The translations under genes and the position numbers were made by a program. A stretch of 64,000 nucleotides of DNA from Candidatus Thorarchaeota archaeon (GTDB taxonomy: Archaea > Asgardarchaeota > Thorarchaeia > Thorarchaeales > Thorarchaeaceae), in contig JAWOEX010000021.1 of NCBI GenBank assembly GCA_046482545.1, forward strand, positions 96,001-160,000, written 5' to 3'. The number at the start of each line of letters is the position of its first letter. Position 1 is the stretch's first letter. The notes below the pieces were generated by a model. That model saw only the letters and a program-made list of their open reading frames with translations, ran no database searches and was not told where the DNA came from. This document shows, piece by piece, positions 27,089 to 35,701 of the stretch.

Positions 27089-28963
27089 CTATATTGCAAA
27101 TTCAGATACTATCAGATTTCGAGACTCAGAAGTGAAGATGAGATATACCGGTATGGCGGCCAATACAACCACTACACCTACTGCCAGCAACATCATTGCA
27201 ACAGAAATAGGAAGATAGAGAATGGATGGAACCGCAGCCTCTGGAACAAGAAAATATATGCTGAAAAGAATTGCTCCGAGTATAGCTGGGATTCCTGATT
27301 TCATCCCCATTTCAATGCCTTCAGCAATCATGGTTTGAGCAATGAAGCTCGGTTTTGCACCAACAGACCGCATGATGGTGTAGTCCCGTAATCTGCCAAA
27401 AACTGATACGAGTAAATAATTCATCAAGCTCAATAACGCACTTGCTAAGGCCATTATTGCTAGTGGTTGAAGAAGGGTCCAAATACCAGCAACGTACTCT
27501 ATATTGCCTTCGAGCGTTTGTTGTTGATGATGAACAGCCAATCCATAGTCAGAGGCGGTATCCTCAATTTGCGACATGAGTGTTGGATTATAGTCATCCA
27601 GCTGAACCAGAAAGAGATTCGGCCCAGATACACCCCAGATATCCTGCATTTCCGAAAAGGAAATCATTGCGACCATACCGCCATTCAGGATATCAAAGGT
27701 AATCGCAGCTACATCGAAGGAAACCCCTTCAACACCCAAGCTCTGTATCATAGGATCTTCGAACAGGGTGTTTGCCATCCTGCCACCAATTGCGGTCTTT
27801 CGTGTCCCTGCAAACTCTCCAAGAGAAAGCTTCTCCTCTTCCCCTTCGAAATACCAGTCTGATATGCAGTTCTCCCAGTGAATACCTACAATCAAAGCGG
27901 AACCAGTTCTGTCACCGCCTATCCGTTCGTATTCACCGGTTTCAGGATTTTGAATATAAGCGGGACCCTCGGAGACAGAAGTATAGTCAATCAGCCGTGC
28001 CTCCGTTTTCATAATCCCGCTCATATTCCCGAGTTTGTCCATCATTTCATTGGATATCAAATCCGCATCATCTAGATAACTGAACGAATCATTGAGTGTA
28101 TCACCCGAGAAGGAATACGCGGAGTAATATCTGGCTAGCAGGTCTGGATTCCCTATGGCTACCACATTGGTTCCCATCGCTCGTGAAACATAGGTGTCTG
28201 TAGTTGTCTGCACAACACCCCCACCAACCCACAGCAGGGATGCGAGCGCAATACTCAGGCCAACTGCCACTACTATTTTCTTTGAATCGGCAATCTTGCG
28301 GCTAAATCCCCGTGTCGCCACTCTGAAAGAGAGGCCAAAGGAATCAAAGAATCCTCGTTTGTGCACCTCTGTGGCCGCATTAGGATTCATCGCAGAGACC
28401 GGCGATTCGTGGACAGCATCATAAATGGGTTTCTGAGCTGCAACGTAACCACTGCCGGTATAGATGAGAGCGAGAATTAGCAATTGAAACCAAGGAAATT
28501 CAAAAGTAAATTGGGCACCTGGCAGCATGGTGCCAAGCCACATCATACCACCTAAGTAGAACATAGTGCCAAAAGCAAAACCAAGAACCAGACTGCCGAT
28601 TATCAGAATCATTGCCTGAGCCATGAAGTGATCAAACACAGTGTCCATCAGGGTTCCAATCGATTTCATCAGTCCAATATCCTTACGTCTACTGCTCATC
28701 TCTAGAGAAACTGTACTCGTTATTACAACAGCACCGAGAAGGATGACAAGAATTAACGAGGTCCAAATGAATCCCTCAAAGAATACAGTCAGCGAGGAGG
28801 TTGAAGCTTCAGAGGTTATCAAGAACGTAATGTCAAGCAGTACATTACCAAACAGGAATAAGAAAACGGTTGCTGCTACCACCGTAGTCATGGTAGCCAT
28901 CACAAGAGCAGTACGTAGAGGTCTTCTTTTGAGATCTTGTGATGCGTGGTCTTGTCTATGCAT
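27089..28963 (-). CDS. Double FtsX/MacB-type ABC permease
   Basis: RRKDIGLMKSIG and RLRDYTIMRSVGA repeats; extracytoplasmic domain. Confidence 0.88.
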   Translation of the reverse strand: MHRQDHASQDLKRRPLRTALVMATMTTVVAATVFLFLFGNVLLDITFLITSEASTSSLTVFFEGFIWTSLILVILLGAVVITSTVSLEMSSRRKDIGLMKSIGTLMDTVFDHFMAQAMILIIGSLVLGFAFGTMFYLGGMMWLGTMLPGAQFTFEFPWFQLLILALIYTGSGYVAAQKPIYDAVHESPVSAMNPNAATEVHKRGFFDSFGLSFRVATRGFSRKIADSKKIVVAVGLSIALASLLWVGGGVVQTTTDTYVSRAMGTNVVAIGNPDLLARYYSAYSFSGDTLNDSFSYLDDADLISNEMMDKLGNMSGIMKTEARLIDYTSVSEGPAYIQNPETGEYERIGGDRTGSALIVGIHWENCISDWYFEGEEEKLSLGEFAGTRKTAIGGRMANTLFEDPMIQSLGVEGVSFDVAAITFDILNGGMVAMISFSEMQDIWGVSGPNLFLVQLDDYNPTLMSQIEDTASDYGLAVHHQQQTLEGNIEYVAGIWTLLQPLAIMALASALLSLMNYLLVSVFGRLRDYTIMRSVGAKPSFIAQTMIAEGIEMGMKSGIPAILGAILFSIYFLVPEAAVPSILYLPISVAMMLLAVGVVVVLAAIPVYLIFTSESRNLIVSEFAI

Positions 28964-29705
28964 TAGGTATCAGCTCTCCGTCTACCATCTCAAATCTACG
29001 GACATCATCAAGCGACAACAACTGTTGATCATGTGTCATAGTTACCACTGTCTTTCCTTCTTGGTTCAAGGCAGTAAGCAGGTCCCTAACCATCTGTGCA
29101 GTATCTACGTCAAGATTGGCAGTAGGTTCATCAGCAAGAATTACAGGCGGATCATTTGCCATTGCCCGAGCAATAGCTACTCTCTGTTGTTCTCCAGAGC
29201 TGAGCTGCCAAGGAAGATGATCTTCGCGATGAGACAGTCCTACCCGTTCAAGCAAATCAGAAGCATCAGACTGTATGGTGTTGAGTTCTCGCTCAGAAAG
29301 CTGCATAGGAAACATCACGTTCTCAAGGGCAGTTAGGGTAGAAATCAGGTTGTAACTCTGAAATATGAAACCTGTATATGTTAGTCTAAAGGTTGCTCTG
29401 AAGGCTTCATCATAGTCACCTATTGGCACATCCAACACGTGAACTCTGCCAGAGGTTACATAATCGATGCAGCCAATGATATTGAGCAATGTTGTCTTGC
29501 CTGAACCTGAAGGGCCACTGATTGCCACAAAGTCTCCTGGAATAATTTCCATAGTCACATTCTGTAGCGCATCAATTTTTCGATTACCAAGTTCATAAGT
29601 TCTATAGACTTTATCCAGCCTGACCGCATGTGTAGCTCCCTCCAAGTCATCCAAGTTAAGCTCAGTATCAGCTTCATTGCTACCAAGCAAAGTGTCTTCA
29701 GACAT
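28956..29705 (-). CDS. ABC ATPase (LolD type)
   Basis: GPSGSGKT, LSSGEQQRVAIARA, DEPTANLD. Confidence 0.95.
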   Translation of the reverse strand: MSEDTLLGSNEADTELNLDDLEGATHAVRLDKVYRTYELGNRKIDALQNVTMEIIPGDFVAISGPSGSGKTTLLNIIGCIDYVTSGRVHVLDVPIGDYDEAFRATFRLTYTGFIFQSYNLISTLTALENVMFPMQLSERELNTIQSDASDLLERVGLSHREDHLPWQLSSGEQQRVAIARAMANDPPVILADEPTANLDVDTAQMVRDLLTALNQEGKTVVTMTHDQQLLSLDDVRRFEMVDGELIPNA

Positions 29706-29779
29706 TGTTGTTTTCCTCGCAGCCTACATTTTGGTCGGATTGATTCCTATGTCATTAGAGCATGTAGATTGCTTTTGAA

Positions 29780-30544
29780 TCACTTCAGAGAAAGACCCAG
29801 TTCAGATATGGCTTCCGATGCCCATTCCTTCACAACTAGAGGCTTCTCTCTTCCAAATACCTTTAGCTTCTGGACTATATCCGCGTCCAACAGGCTGCTA
29901 ACATAATATGAAACCAAACTCTTGTCCAGTGAAAGAATCCGACTAAGTTCTGCCTGTGTAATCTCAGAATTGGTTAAGCACTTTTCCACAATGGAAGCGA
30001 CCGTCGGATTTCGAATTAGTGCAGCGAGTTCTAGGTTTCGCTTTTCCGATGTGAAGCCAGAGATGAAGAGATGACGCGTATTGCCCATTCTGTGGGAAAC
30101 TACGAGTCCGGCGTCTTCCATATTAGAAAGATGGTATTGAAGCGCACCCATGGCACAATCCAAGTGTCGTCTCAATTCACGCAAATGGATACCGGGAAAA
30201 TTCTCAATCTCATCCAGAATTCTCGCTCTTAATGTGACACCCTGTTCTTTTTCTCCTGCATCGACCGAGATGGTTCCTATAACCAGTATAGATGGTATAA
30301 TATTGCCCAGAGTGTTGGTAAGGGTGTTGTCCATTATTACAGATGTACCCATCCTCATTGATGCAAAGCTCATATCACAGTCAACAGCTGCTTGATGCAT
30401 AGATGCAACCTCACTAATTTCGTCAGCTGAAATTACTGCTGAGCCTCTCTGAACACTAGAAATCAAGAAGACCGCAAGACCGGACATCATGAGAACCATT
30501 ACTGTCGCAGCCAACAGTCCTTTGGTACTTTTTCCAACACTCAT
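29780..30544 (-). CDS. Double winged-helix regulator with N-terminal hydrophobic segments
   Basis: RARILDEIENFPGIHLREL...GALQYHL; ITQAELSRILSLDKSLVSYYV. Confidence 0.82.
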   Translation of the reverse strand: MSVGKSTKGLLAATVMVLMMSGLAVFLISSVQRGSAVISADEISEVASMHQAAVDCDMSFASMRMGTSVIMDNTLTNTLGNIIPSILVIGTISVDAGEKEQGVTLRARILDEIENFPGIHLRELRRHLDCAMGALQYHLSNMEDAGLVVSHRMGNTRHLFISGFTSEKRNLELAALIRNPTVASIVEKCLTNSEITQAELSRILSLDKSLVSYYVSSLLDADIVQKLKVFGREKPLVVKEWASEAISELGLSLK

Positions 30545-30621: not shown

Positions 30622-31176
30622 TTATCCTCGCGGGGGGTAACTCATCTTAATGTGGAAGGTACAGGTTTCGTCCCCGATTGCCATGCATGTTTCTTCCTCA
30701 ATCTGCAGTGTCTCGTATTCAATACGGTTATAGTCAGTCAGGTATTCCATAATCGATTCAATGAAACCCCGCAAGTAGTAGCAAGCCGGCTCATCAGATT
30801 CCATACTAGCAGCATAAGGATTCTCCTTGATTTCGATTATTGCTTCCTCATCAAGAAATAGCTTGTAGAGCTTGGCTATTTCAATTTCTCCAAAAGGTAC
30901 TATCAGCCGCTCCAAGGCCATAGCAATGAATTCAATTATTCCTTTGAAATCGCCAGGGGGAGTCTGCTCTCCTATCTTAAAATATTCCCGTTGTGCTTCC
31001 AATCCGGCTAGCCTTCCAGCACTATAGTAGAGGTCTCTAACGCGATCGGGAAATAGGACCTCAATTCTAGCACCGAGTTTTGTCCAAGTCTTTGCAAAAA
31101 AGGCCTTCATAAGCTCAGTCGAATCGAGCCGTCCCTTCCACCATTCTATGGTTTTTTTATCTGACATCAGGAGCAC
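30622..31176 (-). CDS. V4R-domain protein
   Basis: ENP, PACYYLRGFIESI, EEETCMAIGDETCTF. Confidence 0.88.
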   Translation of the reverse strand: MLLMSDKKTIEWWKGRLDSTELMKAFFAKTWTKLGARIEVLFPDRVRDLYYSAGRLAGLEAQREYFKIGEQTPPGDFKGIIEFIAMALERLIVPFGEIEIAKLYKLFLDEEAIIEIKENPYAASMESDEPACYYLRGFIESIMEYLTDYNRIEYETLQIEEETCMAIGDETCTFHIKMSYPPRG

Positions 31177-31238
31177 TCCATAGTGAATGTTGCTATCTTC
31201 TCATAAGTGCTTTATTGTGATTTCTATCATTAGAGGCA

Positions 31239-31715
31239 TCACCAGACAAGCCGCACATTCCATATGCAGCGGTCAGAGCCCGTTGCCCTAGACATTTCTT
31301 GAAAGACTTTGGCATCAACACCCTTGAGTTCTAATATGGACTCCAAGATGCCACTGAAGATTTCTCCATAGCCAAAACCCCTCATGCCTTCAAGATGTAC
31401 ATCTTGGCACCATACACATTCTTCATCTGTTATTCGTACACTTCCTCGAGCTGTATCCATATCGATTTCATCTGGCTTCCTGTCGTAAAGGGCTCTGAAC
31501 ACTACCTCAACTAGCTTTGATACATCTTCTCGAGTTTGGATAGTTTCTGGTGTGTTCTCGGCAATATCTGAGTTGAGATACAAGTTGGTAGATATATCTC
31601 GCCCCACCTTCCGAAGTTGTTCGTTGGCTTTTTCGATACTGTCAGTGGAAGCCAAAACCCGGTCAACAATTCGAGAGTAAAGAGTTACCAGTAGTGGATT
31701 TTTAACGCTAACCAT
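31239..31715 (-). CDS. Bet3/TRAPP-like V4R-fold protein
   Basis: NPLLVTLYSRIV...ANEQLRKVGRDI and YGEIFSGILESILEL align by eye with Bet3 helices. Confidence 0.75.
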   Translation of the reverse strand: MVSVKNPLLVTLYSRIVDRVLASTDSIEKANEQLRKVGRDISTNLYLNSDIAENTPETIQTREDVSKLVEVVFRALYDRKPDEIDMDTARGSVRITDEECVWCQDVHLEGMRGFGYGEIFSGILESILELKGVDAKVFQEMSRATGSDRCIWNVRLVW

Positions 31716-31745
31716 TTTGGGTTGACCTCTAACTTAATTCGTGAG

Positions 31746-32744
31746 TTACAAGGTTCTGCCAATCATGACAAGACCATCTTTCCTGTATTTCCCAATTGTC
31801 CGAATAACCTTATTGAGAGGTGTATCAGTCATCTCAGCGATTTGTTCTGGTGTATGATGCCCATCACAGAGGCTGATAATGTTCTGATCTTCTGAATCAA
31901 CTTCCGACTCCTTGCCTTCGTACATGGGACATTTGACAAAGCGACCCATAGCACGTTCGACCTCTTGATCTTTCTCTGCACGCGGAAGGTCAACAATTCG
32001 TTTTGTAGCCGCCCAGCGCAGCAATTCCATGATGCGCTCATGGGGCTGTAGCATAGCCTCTGCAATATCCTCTACACTCGTCTTGTCGTCAACAAGCATT
32101 AAGACATCGAATCCAAAATTGCGATACTTCTCTTTCATCGCTTTGTACAAATCGGAATCCAGAGATAGGGCATTCGAGTACTGTTCATGACGTTTTGGTA
32201 TAGTATCTGACTTCAGAGTGAAGTCTTGCGGTTGCAGTTCCTCTTCAGGTTCTTTTCTTTCTTTAGGCTCTGGTTCTTTCGCTGGTGCTTCTTCGACAGC
32301 CGGCTCAGGTTTCGCTTCAGAGAGACTTGGCTCGCTCTCGGTAGAAGCTGCCTTAATTGCAATGCTTTCTAGAACCTCTAAGTTGGATTCTGCGGACTCC
32401 TCAAAATCATCAGGGGGAGGAGGCAAATCAATTCCTTCAAGTAATCGAAGAACATTCTTTGTCTTAGCGATTGCGAGTCCCAGCTGGAGCTCCGGTTCAT
32501 AGAGAACTGTAAGAATCCAGTTAATATCAACTGGTGATAGTACAACGAGACCCTTTTCGGTGTCGATGGTCATAAGGCGCAAATCTGATTCATAGAGAGC
32601 GATGCTGTCCTTCACCCGCGGAAAGAGCTCGTCAGGAAATGAAAAGCTAACGAAAGGTCTGCCAACTTTCGTCATCAATGAATAACCAAGCACTTGTTCG
32701 TCAAACCGAAGCTTGGATAGCGCTCGCTCTAAGTCACTGGACAT
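31746..32744 (-). CDS. Roadblock/LC7 domain + acidic linker + two winged helices
   Basis: LERALSKL..VLGYSLMT..G...LMTIDTEKG.VVL...WILTVL...QLGLAI; VDDKTSVEDIA and CDGHHTPEQIA. Confidence 0.72.
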   Translation of the reverse strand: MSSDLERALSKLRFDEQVLGYSLMTKVGRPFVSFSFPDELFPRVKDSIALYESDLRLMTIDTEKGLVVLSPVDINWILTVLYEPELQLGLAIAKTKNVLRLLEGIDLPPPPDDFEESAESNLEVLESIAIKAASTESEPSLSEAKPEPAVEEAPAKEPEPKERKEPEEELQPQDFTLKSDTIPKRHEQYSNALSLDSDLYKAMKEKYRNFGFDVLMLVDDKTSVEDIAEAMLQPHERIMELLRWAATKRIVDLPRAEKDQEVERAMGRFVKCPMYEGKESEVDSEDQNIISLCDGHHTPEQIAEMTDTPLNKVIRTIGKYRKDGLVMIGRTL

Positions 32745-32997
32745 TATCTGTGTACCTCTTCTGGGGATTGGGGCAGACCTAAACCTATCTCTGCATGAGA
32801 ATGCAACCGCGGCAATCTGAAAAGGATTGCGGTTGAATCCTCGCATGACGACAGTCTCAGTTTGTCCTAATCAATCTAAAGGTGACATACTGGCCGTAGC
32901 ATATTAACGCCAGTAACACAGGGATTCCATACCAAGAAAATGATTAAGAGTGATTGAATGTTAGATGAATAGTGCTAGAAAAGGTGGATATCACAAA

Positions 32998-33594
32998 ATG
33001 CGAAATCTATTGGGAGCAATTGCTTCTGTTCTGCTTGGATCCTATCTGTCATTCATGTTGATCGAAGGGAATGTTCTCCCATATTCTTCACCTTCTGATG
33101 CTTTGTGGTTTCTTATCGCCGGAGGAACTATACTCAATTCTGCGGTGACAGGTATATTCCAACCGAACTTCATTATACCCTATATTGGCATCTGGCTGAT
33201 TATGGGGCTTATATCAGGCGTATTCTCAATATCGAAAAGCAATACTGTTAGAACCGCTTTGTGGATAGCGGTGATTATTGCAATCTTATCAATCCTGTCA
33301 GCATTTCTGCAAAATCCCTCAATCTGGTTTGGGGACATGTTGGAACGGAATTCGTTCTTGCTAGCCCAGTTCGTTCAAGCTATACCAACTTCGCTTCTTT
33401 CTCTTCCAAGTGCGATACCTATGGTTTATGTTAAACAGGTGCTCTTTTCTGAGGGTGAACCAAAACCACCCAACGAGATTCGGACCAGATGTGAATGTGG
33501 AGCGGTATATAAGTCAAAGCCTATGCTCTGCGCCGAATGTGGCAGGGAGCTACATGACCCGGACTCCGAATCTCCAAAACAACAACAAGTGTAG
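32998..33594 (+). CDS. Multi-pass membrane protein with C-terminal Zn ribbon
   Basis: 4-5 TM; RCECGAVYKS.P..CAECG. Confidence 0.8.
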   Translation: MRNLLGAIASVLLGSYLSFMLIEGNVLPYSSPSDALWFLIAGGTILNSAVTGIFQPNFIIPYIGIWLIMGLISGVFSISKSNTVRTALWIAVIIAILSILSAFLQNPSIWFGDMLERNSFLLAQFVQAIPTSLLSLPSAIPMVYVKQVLFSEGEPKPPNEIRTRCECGAVYKSKPMLCAECGRELHDPDSESPKQQQV

Positions 33595-33596
33595 TC

Positions 33597-34115
33597 CTAG
33601 CGTTTTCGAGTAATGGCACCGCCCAGTACGCCGCCAATAGTTGCCCCAATAATTGGGTAGATAGTAGATTCAAGAAGGATTTGAAGTATGGTGAGCGATG
33701 CGGTTCCCAGAATAGCTGTGAAATTAACACCCGGAGCAATAAAGAACACAAGCAACCAATTCAAAACAGCTCCGGAAATGACTGAGAAAATGGATGCCAT
33801 AACTCCATTCGGAATCCCACGCGCTATCAGTCCAGCTATCAACCCCGCTGTGCCCCAAGCTAGAAACATGAGGACGGTGGCACCTTGAGCTCCAAAGCCG
33901 AGATAGGATGCCAAGCTAGTTGAACCGAGAGCACTCGGATAGAGTACAGTACTGACCACCGCAATTCTCAGCTCAAGGTCATTCCGTGACAAGAAATCTA
34001 TGACTATTAGAGGATCTATGATATCCTCCGGTATGAATTCGCCAAAGGCAAGAATTACAAATACAATCATATATGCTGCTACTAGGCCAATGACAGTACC
34101 AAGATTCTGTCCCAA
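33597..34115 (-). CDS. Multi-pass membrane protein (paralog of 32998-33594)
   Basis: 4 TM; W..AGLIAGLIARG..NGV motif. Confidence 0.8.
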   Translation of the reverse strand: MGQNLGTVIGLVAAYMIVFVILAFGEFIPEDIIDPLIVIDFLSRNDLELRIAVVSTVLYPSALGSTSLASYLGFGAQGATVLMFLAWGTAGLIAGLIARGIPNGVMASIFSVISGAVLNWLLVFFIAPGVNFTAILGTASLTILQILLESTIYPIIGATIGGVLGGAITRKR

Positions 34116-34251
34116 AACTAAGGTCCTCCGCGCTTATGGGATGATTCTAACACATGTACATTTATGGTTATTCTATATGGCCTTATAACCTATTTCTTAG
34201 GTGAATGACCTAGAAAGATTAAGCTGAATCCGTCAATAGCCAATTCCACTA

Positions 34252-34755
34252 TTAATTGGCCTTTATTGTCCATGTGCACGTTTCATCGCCCACAGCCTGA
34301 CAAGACTCTTGGTAGGATTCGCCCTTGAAACCCCGCAAGTCAAGTACTGCTTGAAATACGCCGCTAACAAGATTGCAATATTGCAGTCCGGGCATTTCTG
34401 TTATTTGAACATCTTGACAGATTACACAGTTATCATCTGTGAACTTAATCGTCTTCTTGTCGTCACTTATCCAAGTAGATGTGAACTCTTGGCCCGAATT
34501 GACCTTATACGCTAATCTGAGTGTGGATGCAAACTCATGAAACTCACCCGCGTGTTCGCTTATCTTTTCCGCATAGTCCATTAGAAGGTGTTCTCCAACA
34601 CGAAAACCAATATCCTTCAGCTGACCGTTGATTACTTCCACGCTTTGAGAGTGCTGAATCAAGTAGTTCATCAGCTCTCTATATACGGACTGGAACAGTG
34701 GTTTAGCCACTTTGTCAATCTTTAGGGCCCATGCAAGCTTTCCTTTCAATCCCAT
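34252..34755 (-). CDS. Bet3/TRAPP-like V4R-fold protein
   Basis: KVAKPLFQSVYRELM...VINGQLKDIGFRVGEHLLMDY; LQYCNLVSGVFQAVLDL; ESCQAVGDETC. Confidence 0.8.
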   Translation of the reverse strand: MGLKGKLAWALKIDKVAKPLFQSVYRELMNYLIQHSQSVEVINGQLKDIGFRVGEHLLMDYAEKISEHAGEFHEFASTLRLAYKVNSGQEFTSTWISDDKKTIKFTDDNCVICQDVQITEMPGLQYCNLVSGVFQAVLDLRGFKGESYQESCQAVGDETCTWTIKAN

Positions 34756-34771
34756 TGTGTTTCCCTCATCG

Positions 34772-35701
34772 TCATTCTTTTCGTGTTCTATTCGTGCGAA
34801 CAAACTTGACTCGCTTACCCCGGTATGGCACTATTGACTGGAGTACTTGGAAATACTGAATGCCTAATTCATCGGCGATTTCTTGGACTGTGTGGTTACC
34901 ATCACAGAACTCCAGAACTTGCCTGTGTTCACGCTTCGCTTTTCCAATGTTGCCACTGTAGACTGGACATTCCACAATTTCTCGTGTGTCAGCCTCCTGT
35001 TCTGATGGGCATTGAACCGAGACTACTCGCTTGGGTATAAGCCACTCTACAACAGGAATGATCCTATCTACTTGTTTGTCCAGTATCTCAGCTATCTGGA
35101 ATATAGTCCGCTTCTCATCAGCCATAAGTAGAACGTCTAGCGCTAGATTTCCAAACTTTTCAATCATCACAGTGTGGAGATCGGAGCCGCTTTTCATGGC
35201 TTCAGAATACAGTTCGTCCTTGTGAACGATGCAACCATGGCGGACCACAAAATCGTGGTTTTCATCTGCGGATATTTCAGGTTCCTGCTCTTGAATCTCG
35301 TCCCTTTCGCGTTCTTCATGTGGGTCCTCGCTTATAGTATAATCCGTAGACATAGGTGGATCCGGGAGAGCAGTATCCTGCAATGCCGTAACCACATCTC
35401 TAGTAGTTTGAAGAGAGGCGCCTAATGGTTTCTCAGGTACAAATAGAACACCAAGTACCCAGTTTTCATCAACACGCGAAAGAACGACCGTTCCTGCATC
35501 GGTGAGAACATTCACAAGTTTAAGTGATGACGCGTGCGCCTTCATCGTCCCTTTTAGCTGAGGCAAGATTTCTTCTGGCATGGAGAAGGAGAGAAATGGC
35601 TCCCCATCAGTAGTGAAAAGTGAATAGGCGCTGACTGATTCATCGAATCGCAGCTTCCCGAATACATGATCCAAATCCAAAGGCGTTTCACGTCCGTCCA
35701 C
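34772..35701 (-). CDS. Roadblock/LC7 + two winged helices (paralog of 31746-32744)
   Basis: KLRFDE.V.AYSLFTTDGEPFLSFS, DVLLMADEKRT, ECPVY.G, FCDGNHTVQEIA shared with the paralog. Confidence 0.75.
   Translation of the reverse strand: MDGRETPLDLDHVFGKLRFDESVSAYSLFTTDGEPFLSFSMPEEILPQLKGTMKAHASSLKLVNVLTDAGTVVLSRVDENWVLGVLFVPEKPLGASLQTTRDVVTALQDTALPDPPMSTDYTISEDPHEERERDEIQEQEPEISADENHDFVVRHGCIVHKDELYSEAMKSGSDLHTVMIEKFGNLALDVLLMADEKRTIFQIAEILDKQVDRIIPVVEWLIPKRVVSVQCPSEQEADTREIVECPVYSGNIGKAKREHRQVLEFCDGNHTVQEIADELGIQYFQVLQSIVPYRGKRVKFVRTNRTRKE

Follow-up and report, generated by a model that had tools for sequence, protein, structure and literature searches.

Within a stretch of 64,000 nucleotides from a Candidatus Thorarchaeota archaeon (positions 96,001 to 160,000 of contig JAWOEX010000021.1, here C26; the window in the following) we found a cluster of seven genes in which proteins resembling the Bet3/TRAPPC3 subunit of the eukaryotic TRAPP complex (BetA, BetB) are encoded next to proteins with a roadblock domain and two winged-helix (wH) domains (RbA, RbB). 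The genome carrying the window comprises 3.05 Mb and is 99% complete; homologues bear the label Thorarchaeota. A previous reading of the DNA letters, made without database searches (the sequence-only reading), had proposed the cluster to encode a membrane-anchored proto-TRAPP complex using roadblock in place of longin. All seven open reading frames (ORFs) of the segment 30622-35701 were present at the positions given there (Table 1); for RbB the longest ORF begins at 35701 and the probable start is a TTG at 35680. The two roadblock-linker-2xwH paralogues, each directly before a Bet3-like gene, were also as described: RbA and RbB share 33% identity over 321 amino acids (aa) (E 2e-57), BetA and BetB 24% identity (E 8e-24), an AlphaFold2 model of RbB gave the expected folds, and each Rb gene lies upstream of its Bet gene with gaps of 30 bp (RbA-BetA) and 16 bp (RbB-BetB). 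Rb and Bet matches were found in 59/59 genomes of the Thorarchaeota family, nearly every one of which encoded both Rb paralogues, and the expected conservation of the cluster was likewise observed, as the seven-gene order was identical in 20/20 loci of this family.

Table 1. Genes of the cluster and features of RbB (positions within the window)
Feature	Position	Strand	Description
V4R (third V4R protein)	30622-31176	-	ordinary prokaryotic type, MJ1460/DUF5943-like
BetA	31239-31715	-	orthologue of crystallised Thor-TRAPPC3 (7YH2/7YH3)
RbA	31746-32744	-	roadblock-linker-wH1-wH2 paralogue without YF motif
MemA	32965-33594	+	membrane protein, ~four hydrophobic segments, C-terminal CxC/CxxC zinc ribbon; probable start 32998
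MemB	33597-34115	-	membrane protein, ~four hydrophobic segments
BetB	34252-34755	-	Bet3/TRAPPC3-like, widespread Asgard lineage; N-terminal MGxKGxxAW extension; five invariant Cys
RbB	34772-35680	-	roadblock (residues 1-104), acidic Pro-rich linker, wH1, wH2; NPRL2-like architecture
RbB roadblock domain	35369-35680	-	short central helix, model helix 36-48
RbB wH2	34772-34996	-	domain kept beside Bet3-like genes across Asgard; predicted BetB-dimer binder
RbB Tyr276-Phe277	34850-34855	-	start of wH2 recognition helix; core of predicted interface

Both Bet proteins scored above the cut-off of the Pfam family TRAPP (PF04051; BetA 33.3 and BetB 34.7 bits, cut-off 27). The Bet profile matched TRAPPC3 chains with E values from 4e-16 to 8e-7 and TRAPPC5/6-type chains with E 0.003, and it gave no match to a ligand-sensing V4R protein at E<1. 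At the level of sequence, BetA and BetB resemble eukaryotic TRAPPC3 and not ligand-sensing V4R. BetA aligned over its full length with Thor-TRAPPC3 (7YH2, 7YH3; Tran et al. 2024, PMC10933270) at E 9e-69 and is its orthologue, and BetB is a paralogue of that protein (E 1.5e-23) which carries an N-terminal extension and belongs to a lineage more widespread in Asgard archaea than that of BetA. In all three genomes of the genus, the YC motif of BetA has Gly in place of its conserved Cys; BetA has thus lost one conserved Cys compared to the crystallised protein, and its zinc site may be altered. BetA also has Tyr at the position of BetB Leu58 and mostly Phe or Tyr at position 140. The C-terminal extension of Bet3 was absent from both proteins, which stop at the last strand. 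In TRAPP this tail supplies the guanine nucleotide exchange factor (GEF) activity and opens the Rab nucleotide pocket (PMC3747258, PMC10152722).

In phylogenetic trees the eukaryotic Bet3 proteins formed their own clade (100/100), with BetA and BetB outside of it in separate groups among Asgard sequences; the tree, built without TRAPPC5/6 sequences, did not identify a sister group of eukaryotic Bet3. BetB grouped with sequences from Hermod-, Borr-, Wukong- and Jordarchaeia (98/87). This suggests a split between A and B types that is older than the Thor lineage, although a BetA+BetB clade was not rejected (p-AU 0.43). A locus of the Thor sister family was considered as the pre-duplication state and dropped, its genes being A-type. 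Several Bet3-like proteins labelled Baldrarchaeia (L116:3435-5366; P0051, P0053, P0056, P0069, P0072) were without CxxC, and several of them had a (D/E)NP motif as in eukaryotic Bet3. Jordarchaeia (L098-L100) encoded tandem Bet3-like genes, apparently from a separate duplication.

The AlphaFold2 model of RbB (44 sequences, pLDDT 89) showed a domain of roadblock order connected by an acidic, disordered linker to two wH domains. The N-terminal domain has the Roadblock/LC7 fold order (helix, two strands, helix, three strands, helix) in model and fold search and resembled MglC, LAMTOR2 and Asgard roadblocks (Z 11-12.5). The domain was detected by fold searches only; sequence searches of Pfam and the PDB missed it (best 7F8M, E 0.34). 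Its central helix comprised 13 residues in the monomer model, ~12 residues shorter than that of Thor-RB 7F8M in the same weak alignment. With the wH part folded alone, NPRL2/Npr2 chains were the top five Foldseek matches, and they came first among 48,161 PDB representatives (Z 10.4, root-mean-square deviation (rmsd) 2.1-2.3 A over 73-75 residues, covering wH1), with DNA-binding wH proteins at Z ~6.8 at most. Full-length RbB aligned with GATOR1/SEA chains of NPRL2/Npr2 size (Foldseek; 9o5a_H, E 2e-6 over 374 columns; also 8adl_S and 7t3a_B), at an rmsd of ~20 A owing to the linker. NPRL2 consists of a longin with wH repeats behind it, and the longin and roadblock folds are related by circular permutation (PMC3747258). 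According to the models RbA and RbB are built like NPRL2, a longin-superfamily domain followed by tandem winged helices, which is a closer architectural match that the sequence-only reading had overlooked. The likeness is one of architecture: under a strict NPRL2/NPRL3 test the RbB model starts with a helix, i.e. in roadblock order, and has G-x-P instead of the GP motif (PMC12290439), and NPR2 (PF06218) gave no match in the search of this genome. A conserved Thor cluster on contig C9 of the same genome (L062:2876-9391) comprises genes for a pair of longin-wH proteins of 320 and 427 aa, for a MinD-like ATPase and for another longin-like protein. These longin-2xwH proteins are better NPRL2-type candidates than RbA and RbB, and they may be the NPRL2-like Thor/Loki family described by Liu et al. 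(bioRxiv 10.1101/2020.10.19.343400), whose longin type suits the C9 paralogues better.

BetB-type genes occurred in Hermodarchaeia, Borrarchaeum, Wukongarchaeia, Jordarchaeia and further families. The gene adjoining the Bet3-like gene usually ended in a wH domain homologous to wH2 of RbB, while its N-terminal part varied. This part was a Cys-rich domain in Hermodarchaeia (6/6 loci, plus 6 named records), a longin-like domain in Borrarchaeum (2/2 loci) and in the one informative locus of Wukongarchaeia (1/1), and a roadblock-like domain in family f13 (3/3 loci). In the Thor sister family a gene bearing wH2 likewise adjoined the Bet3-like gene (1/1 locus), and protein-first look-ups that included clusters labelled Baldrarchaeia returned the same adjacency in 4/4 cases (E 2.5e-20 to 1.3e-8), some of the Baldr-labelled loci having a longin on the adaptor gene. 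The adaptor longin of L114 matched Pfam Longin at E 1.6e-6. In one Asgard lineage a longin-like domain was fused to Bet3 itself without a wH domain (L096:3318-4208, P0043), and a longin-TRAPPC3 fusion has been described from Heimdall (MBD3190748.1; PMC10933270). This conservation across lineages is more telling than synteny within the family. Since the last wH stays beside Bet3 and is the predicted binder whereas the N-terminal domain is variable, the pair of wH adaptor and Bet3 is probably the conserved unit, with the roadblock as a swappable tethered domain and not, as had been proposed, a longin substitute docked on Bet3. The homologue search with query A1 led mainly to RbB-type proteins, and with the queries used several large families sampled from the phylum gave no strong Rb/Bet match (f5 0/26, f22 0/16, f14 0/10). 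In the Baldr-labelled locus L116 two tandem Bet3-like genes were followed by a longin-like-wH gene. Family f15 (L081:7059-8520) encoded a roadblock-single-wH gene and, 13 bp behind it, a V4R gene grouping with ordinary V4R, an arrangement which suggests that wH adaptors may be paired with V4R folds more widely.

The recognition helix of B-type wH2 domains begins with an aromatic residue followed by an invariant Phe (51/51), and this YF motif is absent from RbA; therefore two copies of BetB were modelled with wH2, the motif having been chosen from the alignment before complex modelling. The model reached an ipSAE of 0.64 (runs 0.64, 0.61 and 0.64; best control 0.36) and passed a mark that was reached by 58/80 solved complexes and 2/110 mismatched pairs, counts which are only roughly applicable here. 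The runs agreed in at least 90% of contacts, with a partner pLDDT of at least 81. Best defined were the contacts of wH Tyr48 and Phe49 (276 and 277 in the full-length protein) with BetB Leu140, Arg141 and Leu58, and the wH strands contacted helix 1 and residues 115-121 of the second BetB subunit. At the contact positions wH2 Phe49 was conserved in 51/51, BetB Leu58 in 35/35, Arg141 in 34/35 and Leu140 in 32/35 sequences. Docking of the wH domain on the N-terminal MGxKGxxAW helix of BetB was also considered and rejected, as this helix was missing from the confident contacts. No solved structure of a Bet3-wH complex is known to us from which the modelling program could have memorised this contact. 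Winged helix 2 of RbB thus probably binds the BetB dimer, which the model supports, short of showing it, and to this extent the interaction expected among the products of the cluster is supported.

Taken together, we consider a two-gene module of a Bet3-like dimer and a wH adaptor to be the best explanation overall and a rather probable one. It builds on the folds, the paralogy, the pairing across lineages, the swappable N-terminal domains and the BetB2-wH2 model, all of which were obtained computationally. The core of the module would be a zinc-binding Bet3/TRAPPC3-like dimer with a modular adaptor, whose C-terminal wH would serve as a protein-binding domain docking on a composite site of the dimer: Tyr276 and Phe277 would pack on Leu58, Leu140 and Arg141 of BetB, and the wH strands would touch the second subunit. 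The wH would thereby tether a roadblock (as here) or a longin (as in Borrarchaeum, Wukongarchaeia and some Baldr-labelled loci) to the Bet3 dimer, and the tether would do in trans what the longin-Bet3 fusion does in cis. The binding of a Bet3-like dimer to a wH adaptor which tethers a roadblock or longin domain appears quite probable in itself. RbA-BetA and RbB-BetB might represent two cognate pairs with different interface residues; the residue differences fit cognate pairing but may stem from a single evolutionary change. With less confidence, the Bet3 dimer could be a ligand-sensing or metal/redox-sensing hub from which the tethered roadblock or longin signals to a small GTPase.

Several observations weigh against this explanation. 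Thor-TRAPPC3 was crystallised as a stand-alone homodimer, with no partners or gene context described, and in HeLa cells its fusion to green fluorescent protein (GFP) showed no membrane targeting (PMC10933270). In the model, the central helix of the roadblock lacks the half to which the dimerisation of canonical roadblocks has been ascribed (Tran et al., PMC10933270). In one control, wH2 modelled with an unrelated protein reached 0.36, which makes wH2 somewhat sticky in the model, and the interface was no more conserved than the remainder of the proteins (0.62 vs 0.61; 0.58 vs 0.61). The modelling covered the B pair (BetB and wH2 of RbB) only, and the occurrence of YF with Leu58 and of non-YF with Tyr58 follows the clades, may reflect one or two events and is thus not independent evidence. 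No wH gene was found beside Bet3 in the six Jordarchaeia loci (0/6), one Jordarchaeia genome (L080) carrying such a gene away from Bet3. Flanking genes for pfkB, a helix-turn-helix (HTH) membrane protein and an ATP-binding cassette (ABC)/FtsX pair were likewise kept in 20-22 loci of the family, giving a syntenic region of ~15 kb, and because these unrelated genes are equally kept, shared gene order in the family argues only weakly for a complex. Finally, the seven-gene cluster contained no GTPase gene, the nearest gene for a Rab-like or small GTPase in the window being ~16 kb away.

In other lineages GTPase genes do occur near the module. In Borrarchaeum weybense (L087:3244-6864 = L103) three Ras-family genes directly precede the longin-wH and Bet3 genes on one strand, an order closer to TRAPP than any other observed. 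In two Jordarchaeia loci Bet3 is flanked by Rab-like genes, and in the Thor sister family a single A-type RbA-BetA-V4R unit is divergent from a small GTPase gene (L082:8003-8713). Judged from the domain families and the context in these three other lineages, the module might feed a small GTPase, which we regard as a real possibility that falls somewhat short of being probable. Genome layout has been described as a poor guide to which Asgard GTPase belongs with which regulator (PMC10933270). A second Borrarchaeum locus (L088) carried two such GTPase genes. A look-alike of the sister-family GTPase is encoded in the present genome at C26:94773-95477, ~32 kb from the cluster and just outside of the window, and represents a candidate client. 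In all, Thor encodes roughly fifteen small GTPases.

A broader version of the two-gene module would be a widespread Asgard complex centred on Bet3 and regulating GTPases, in which an NPRL2-like adaptor tethers longin or roadblock via its wH, pieces of TRAPP and GATOR1 thus being combined in one machine, and in which direct longin-Bet3 contact later replaced the tether on the same surface. We consider this version doubtful. Unlikely is also an NPRL2/NPRL3-like GTPase-activating protein (GAP), in which RbA and RbB would form a roadblock heterodimer as in GATOR1 that acts on a Rag- or MglA-like GTPase, with the Bet3-like dimers as regulatory parts on the wH tails. Such a GAP is compatible with the wH-Bet3 contact proposed above, and the full-length alignment with GATOR1/SEA chains, the first rank of NPRL2/Npr2 for the C-terminal part alone and the presence of two Rb paralogues in nearly every genome of the Thor family argue for it, as does Arg69, which is invariant in RbB (20/20) where RbA has Pro. 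However, Arg69, placed by the model at a strand end, is only a candidate arginine finger, the N-terminal domain has roadblock and not longin topology with G-x-P in place of the GP motif of GAP longins (PMC12290439), single-copy and single-wH forms exist, and the C9 longin-2xwH proteins fit the NPRL2 domain order better.

In a true proto-TRAPP the roadblocks would form a platform flanked by BetA, BetB and V4R in the places of C3, C5 and C6, anchored by MemA and MemB and acting as GEF for a Rab-like GTPase. The matches of the Bet profile to both TRAPPC3 (E 4e-16) and TRAPPC5/6-type chains (E 0.003), the identical gene order in 20/20 loci, the Rab-like genes adjoining the module in Borrarchaeum and the existence of a longin-Bet3 fusion are in line with such a complex. 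We nevertheless consider it improbable, since the C-terminal extension that is the source of the GEF activity of TRAPP is absent (PMC3747258, PMC10152722), the roadblock is not the part kept with Bet3, the third V4R is not Bet3-type, the membrane genes stand apart from Bet3 in other lineages, and the flanking pfkB, ABC and HTH genes are equally syntenic. The locus is real and is not a demonstrated proto-TRAPP, and the original proposal is supported in part: the conserved cluster, the likeness of BetA and BetB to TRAPPC3 and the probable Rb-Bet binding speak for it, the missing extension and the ordinary third V4R against it.

Quite improbable, in our view, is a split one-component transcription regulator, in which the wH would bind DNA and a Zn/Cys-containing partner of V4R fold would sense ligand or redox state, like MsvR distributed over two chains. 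The gene order of wH followed by V4R mirrors the domain order of MsvR, and BetB has five invariant Cys. Thor-TRAPPC3 contains cavities and a PoxR-like Zn site, and ligand binding was proposed by its authors (PMC10933270). On the other hand the wH domains are not basic but near neutral (net charge -3 to +2), the exposed aromatic residues of the recognition helix are buried against BetB in the model, and NPRL2 and non-DNA-binding wH proteins rank well above transcription factors as structural neighbours. A mere neighbourhood of co-regulated genes or a slowly rearranging region without physical complex, to which the ~15 kb synteny including unrelated genes and the Jordarchaeia retaining Bet3 without an adjacent wH gene would point, is very improbable, as the wH-Bet3 adjacency outlasts a full change of flanks and adaptor N-terminus in at least five other lineages and the BetB2-wH2 model passes.

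Among known systems, the structures of Thor-TRAPPC3, the longin-TRAPPC3 fusion and NPRL2-like proteins in Thor are already published. No published description of the pairing of wH adaptor and Bet3 was found in a literature search that covered mostly freely accessible papers. With the eukaryotic TRAPP core (TRAPPC3/C5/C6 and the longins C1/C4/C2/C2L) the two-gene module shares dimers of the Bet3 fold and partners of the longin/roadblock superfamily, and the predicted wH site spans both BetB subunits and uses stretches aligning with G.RLIEDF and ALEMV of Bet3. In TRAPP, however, free longins bind the Bet3-family subunits directly, whereas the contact predicted here is made by the wH, and the cluster encodes a roadblock domain and no longin gene. 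Moreover BetA and BetB, without the tail, lie outside the eukaryotic TRAPPC3 clade. NPRL2/Npr2 of GATOR1/SEACIT has in common with RbA and RbB the N-terminal longin/roadblock-superfamily domain and the tandem wH, and differs by the roadblock topology, the lack of an exact GP motif and the lack of an NPR2 Pfam match in the latter. The Heimdall fusion likewise joins a longin-superfamily domain to the Bet3 fold, but covalently and without wH, whereas here two genes would be bridged by the wH. The roadblocks of MglB/MglC and Ragulator have the same N-terminal fold as RbB (Z 11-12.5); compared to these the central helix of the Rb proteins is shortened, wH domains are fused and no GTPase gene is adjacent in the Thor family. 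MsvR, an HTH-V4R redox regulator of methanogens (PMC3729527), likewise places a wH next to a Cys-containing V4R fold, but as a single-chain DNA-binding regulator, whereas the present proteins are separate chains with a Bet3-type V4R and a non-basic wH.

Asgard Bet3-like proteins are a standard "eukaryotic signature", for which the locus now names a candidate partner, a predicted binding domain and residues. The crystallised paralogue, corresponding to BetA, differs from the widespread one, BetB. In the pairing, two components from which eukaryotic GTPase regulators are built would be linked in an archaeon, a link that can be tested, and the Borrarchaeum set of three Rab-like genes, longin-wH and Bet3 might serve as a small and complete test of a TRAPP-like regulator predating eukaryotes.

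The third V4R protein matched Pfam V4R (PF02830) only (39.3 bits, cut-off 31). Its best PDB match was MJ1460 (E 0.005), its Atlas neighbours were V4R/DUF5943, and in the tree it grouped with V4R rows apart from the Bet3-like set (89/88 for 8 rows); it was closer to prokaryotic V4R than to TRAPP subunits. Grouping with ordinary V4R, named beforehand as a finding that would speak against a TRAPP-like complex, was thus seen for this protein and not for the TRAPPC3-like BetA and BetB. Its gene follows the A unit, after BetA, in two families only, the sister family included. The two membrane proteins had been taken for paralogues; both are present, but HHalign indicates only a distant relationship (probability 76%, E 2e-5, 14% identity over 103 columns), their genes are convergent on opposite strands, and only MemA has the C-terminal CxC/CxxC zinc ribbon. 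MemB gave weak DUF5518 matches in 2/22 family members. MemA was present in many lineages of Asgard archaea, also in some that yielded no match for Rb or Bet, and in other lineages (L120-L130, L052, L065-L077) MemA, often with MemB, adjoined genes for geranylgeranyl reductase or glutamyl-tRNA synthetase (GluRS) away from Bet3, a recurrence which possibly indicates a link to lipid metabolism. A membrane-anchored complex of all seven products is not favoured by this separation in the lineages examined. A link of the membrane pair with an Rb protein is possible because in Hermodarchaeia MemB-MemA adjoin a roadblock-single-wH gene in 13 loci, a fourteenth being cut after MemA, with Bet3 elsewhere. 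MemA, MemB and the third V4R are neighbours of putative module membership only. In the Thor sister family (L119:3171-5628) the convergent MemB/MemA pair adjoins two Snf7 (ESCRT-III) genes.

The locus consists of at least three transcription units and is not a single operon. A scan for sigma-70 promoters and terminators gave chance level, the sigma-70 model being ill-suited to archaea. Contigs from RNA libraries of three salt-lake studies, nearly all of them 99%+ identical, covered parts of all seven genes at low depth; being short, shallow and mute on co-transcription and strand, they represent presence in RNA libraries, short of proven transcription. In the relative G017 (L051:5490-6958) stop codons interrupt RbB and BetB was called short, by decay or assembly error. 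After the V4R gene, on the same strand, 27089-30544 encode an HVO_0163-type HTH protein with an N-terminal hydrophobic segment, an ABC ATPase and an FtsX-type permease, which were present in nearly all loci of the family.

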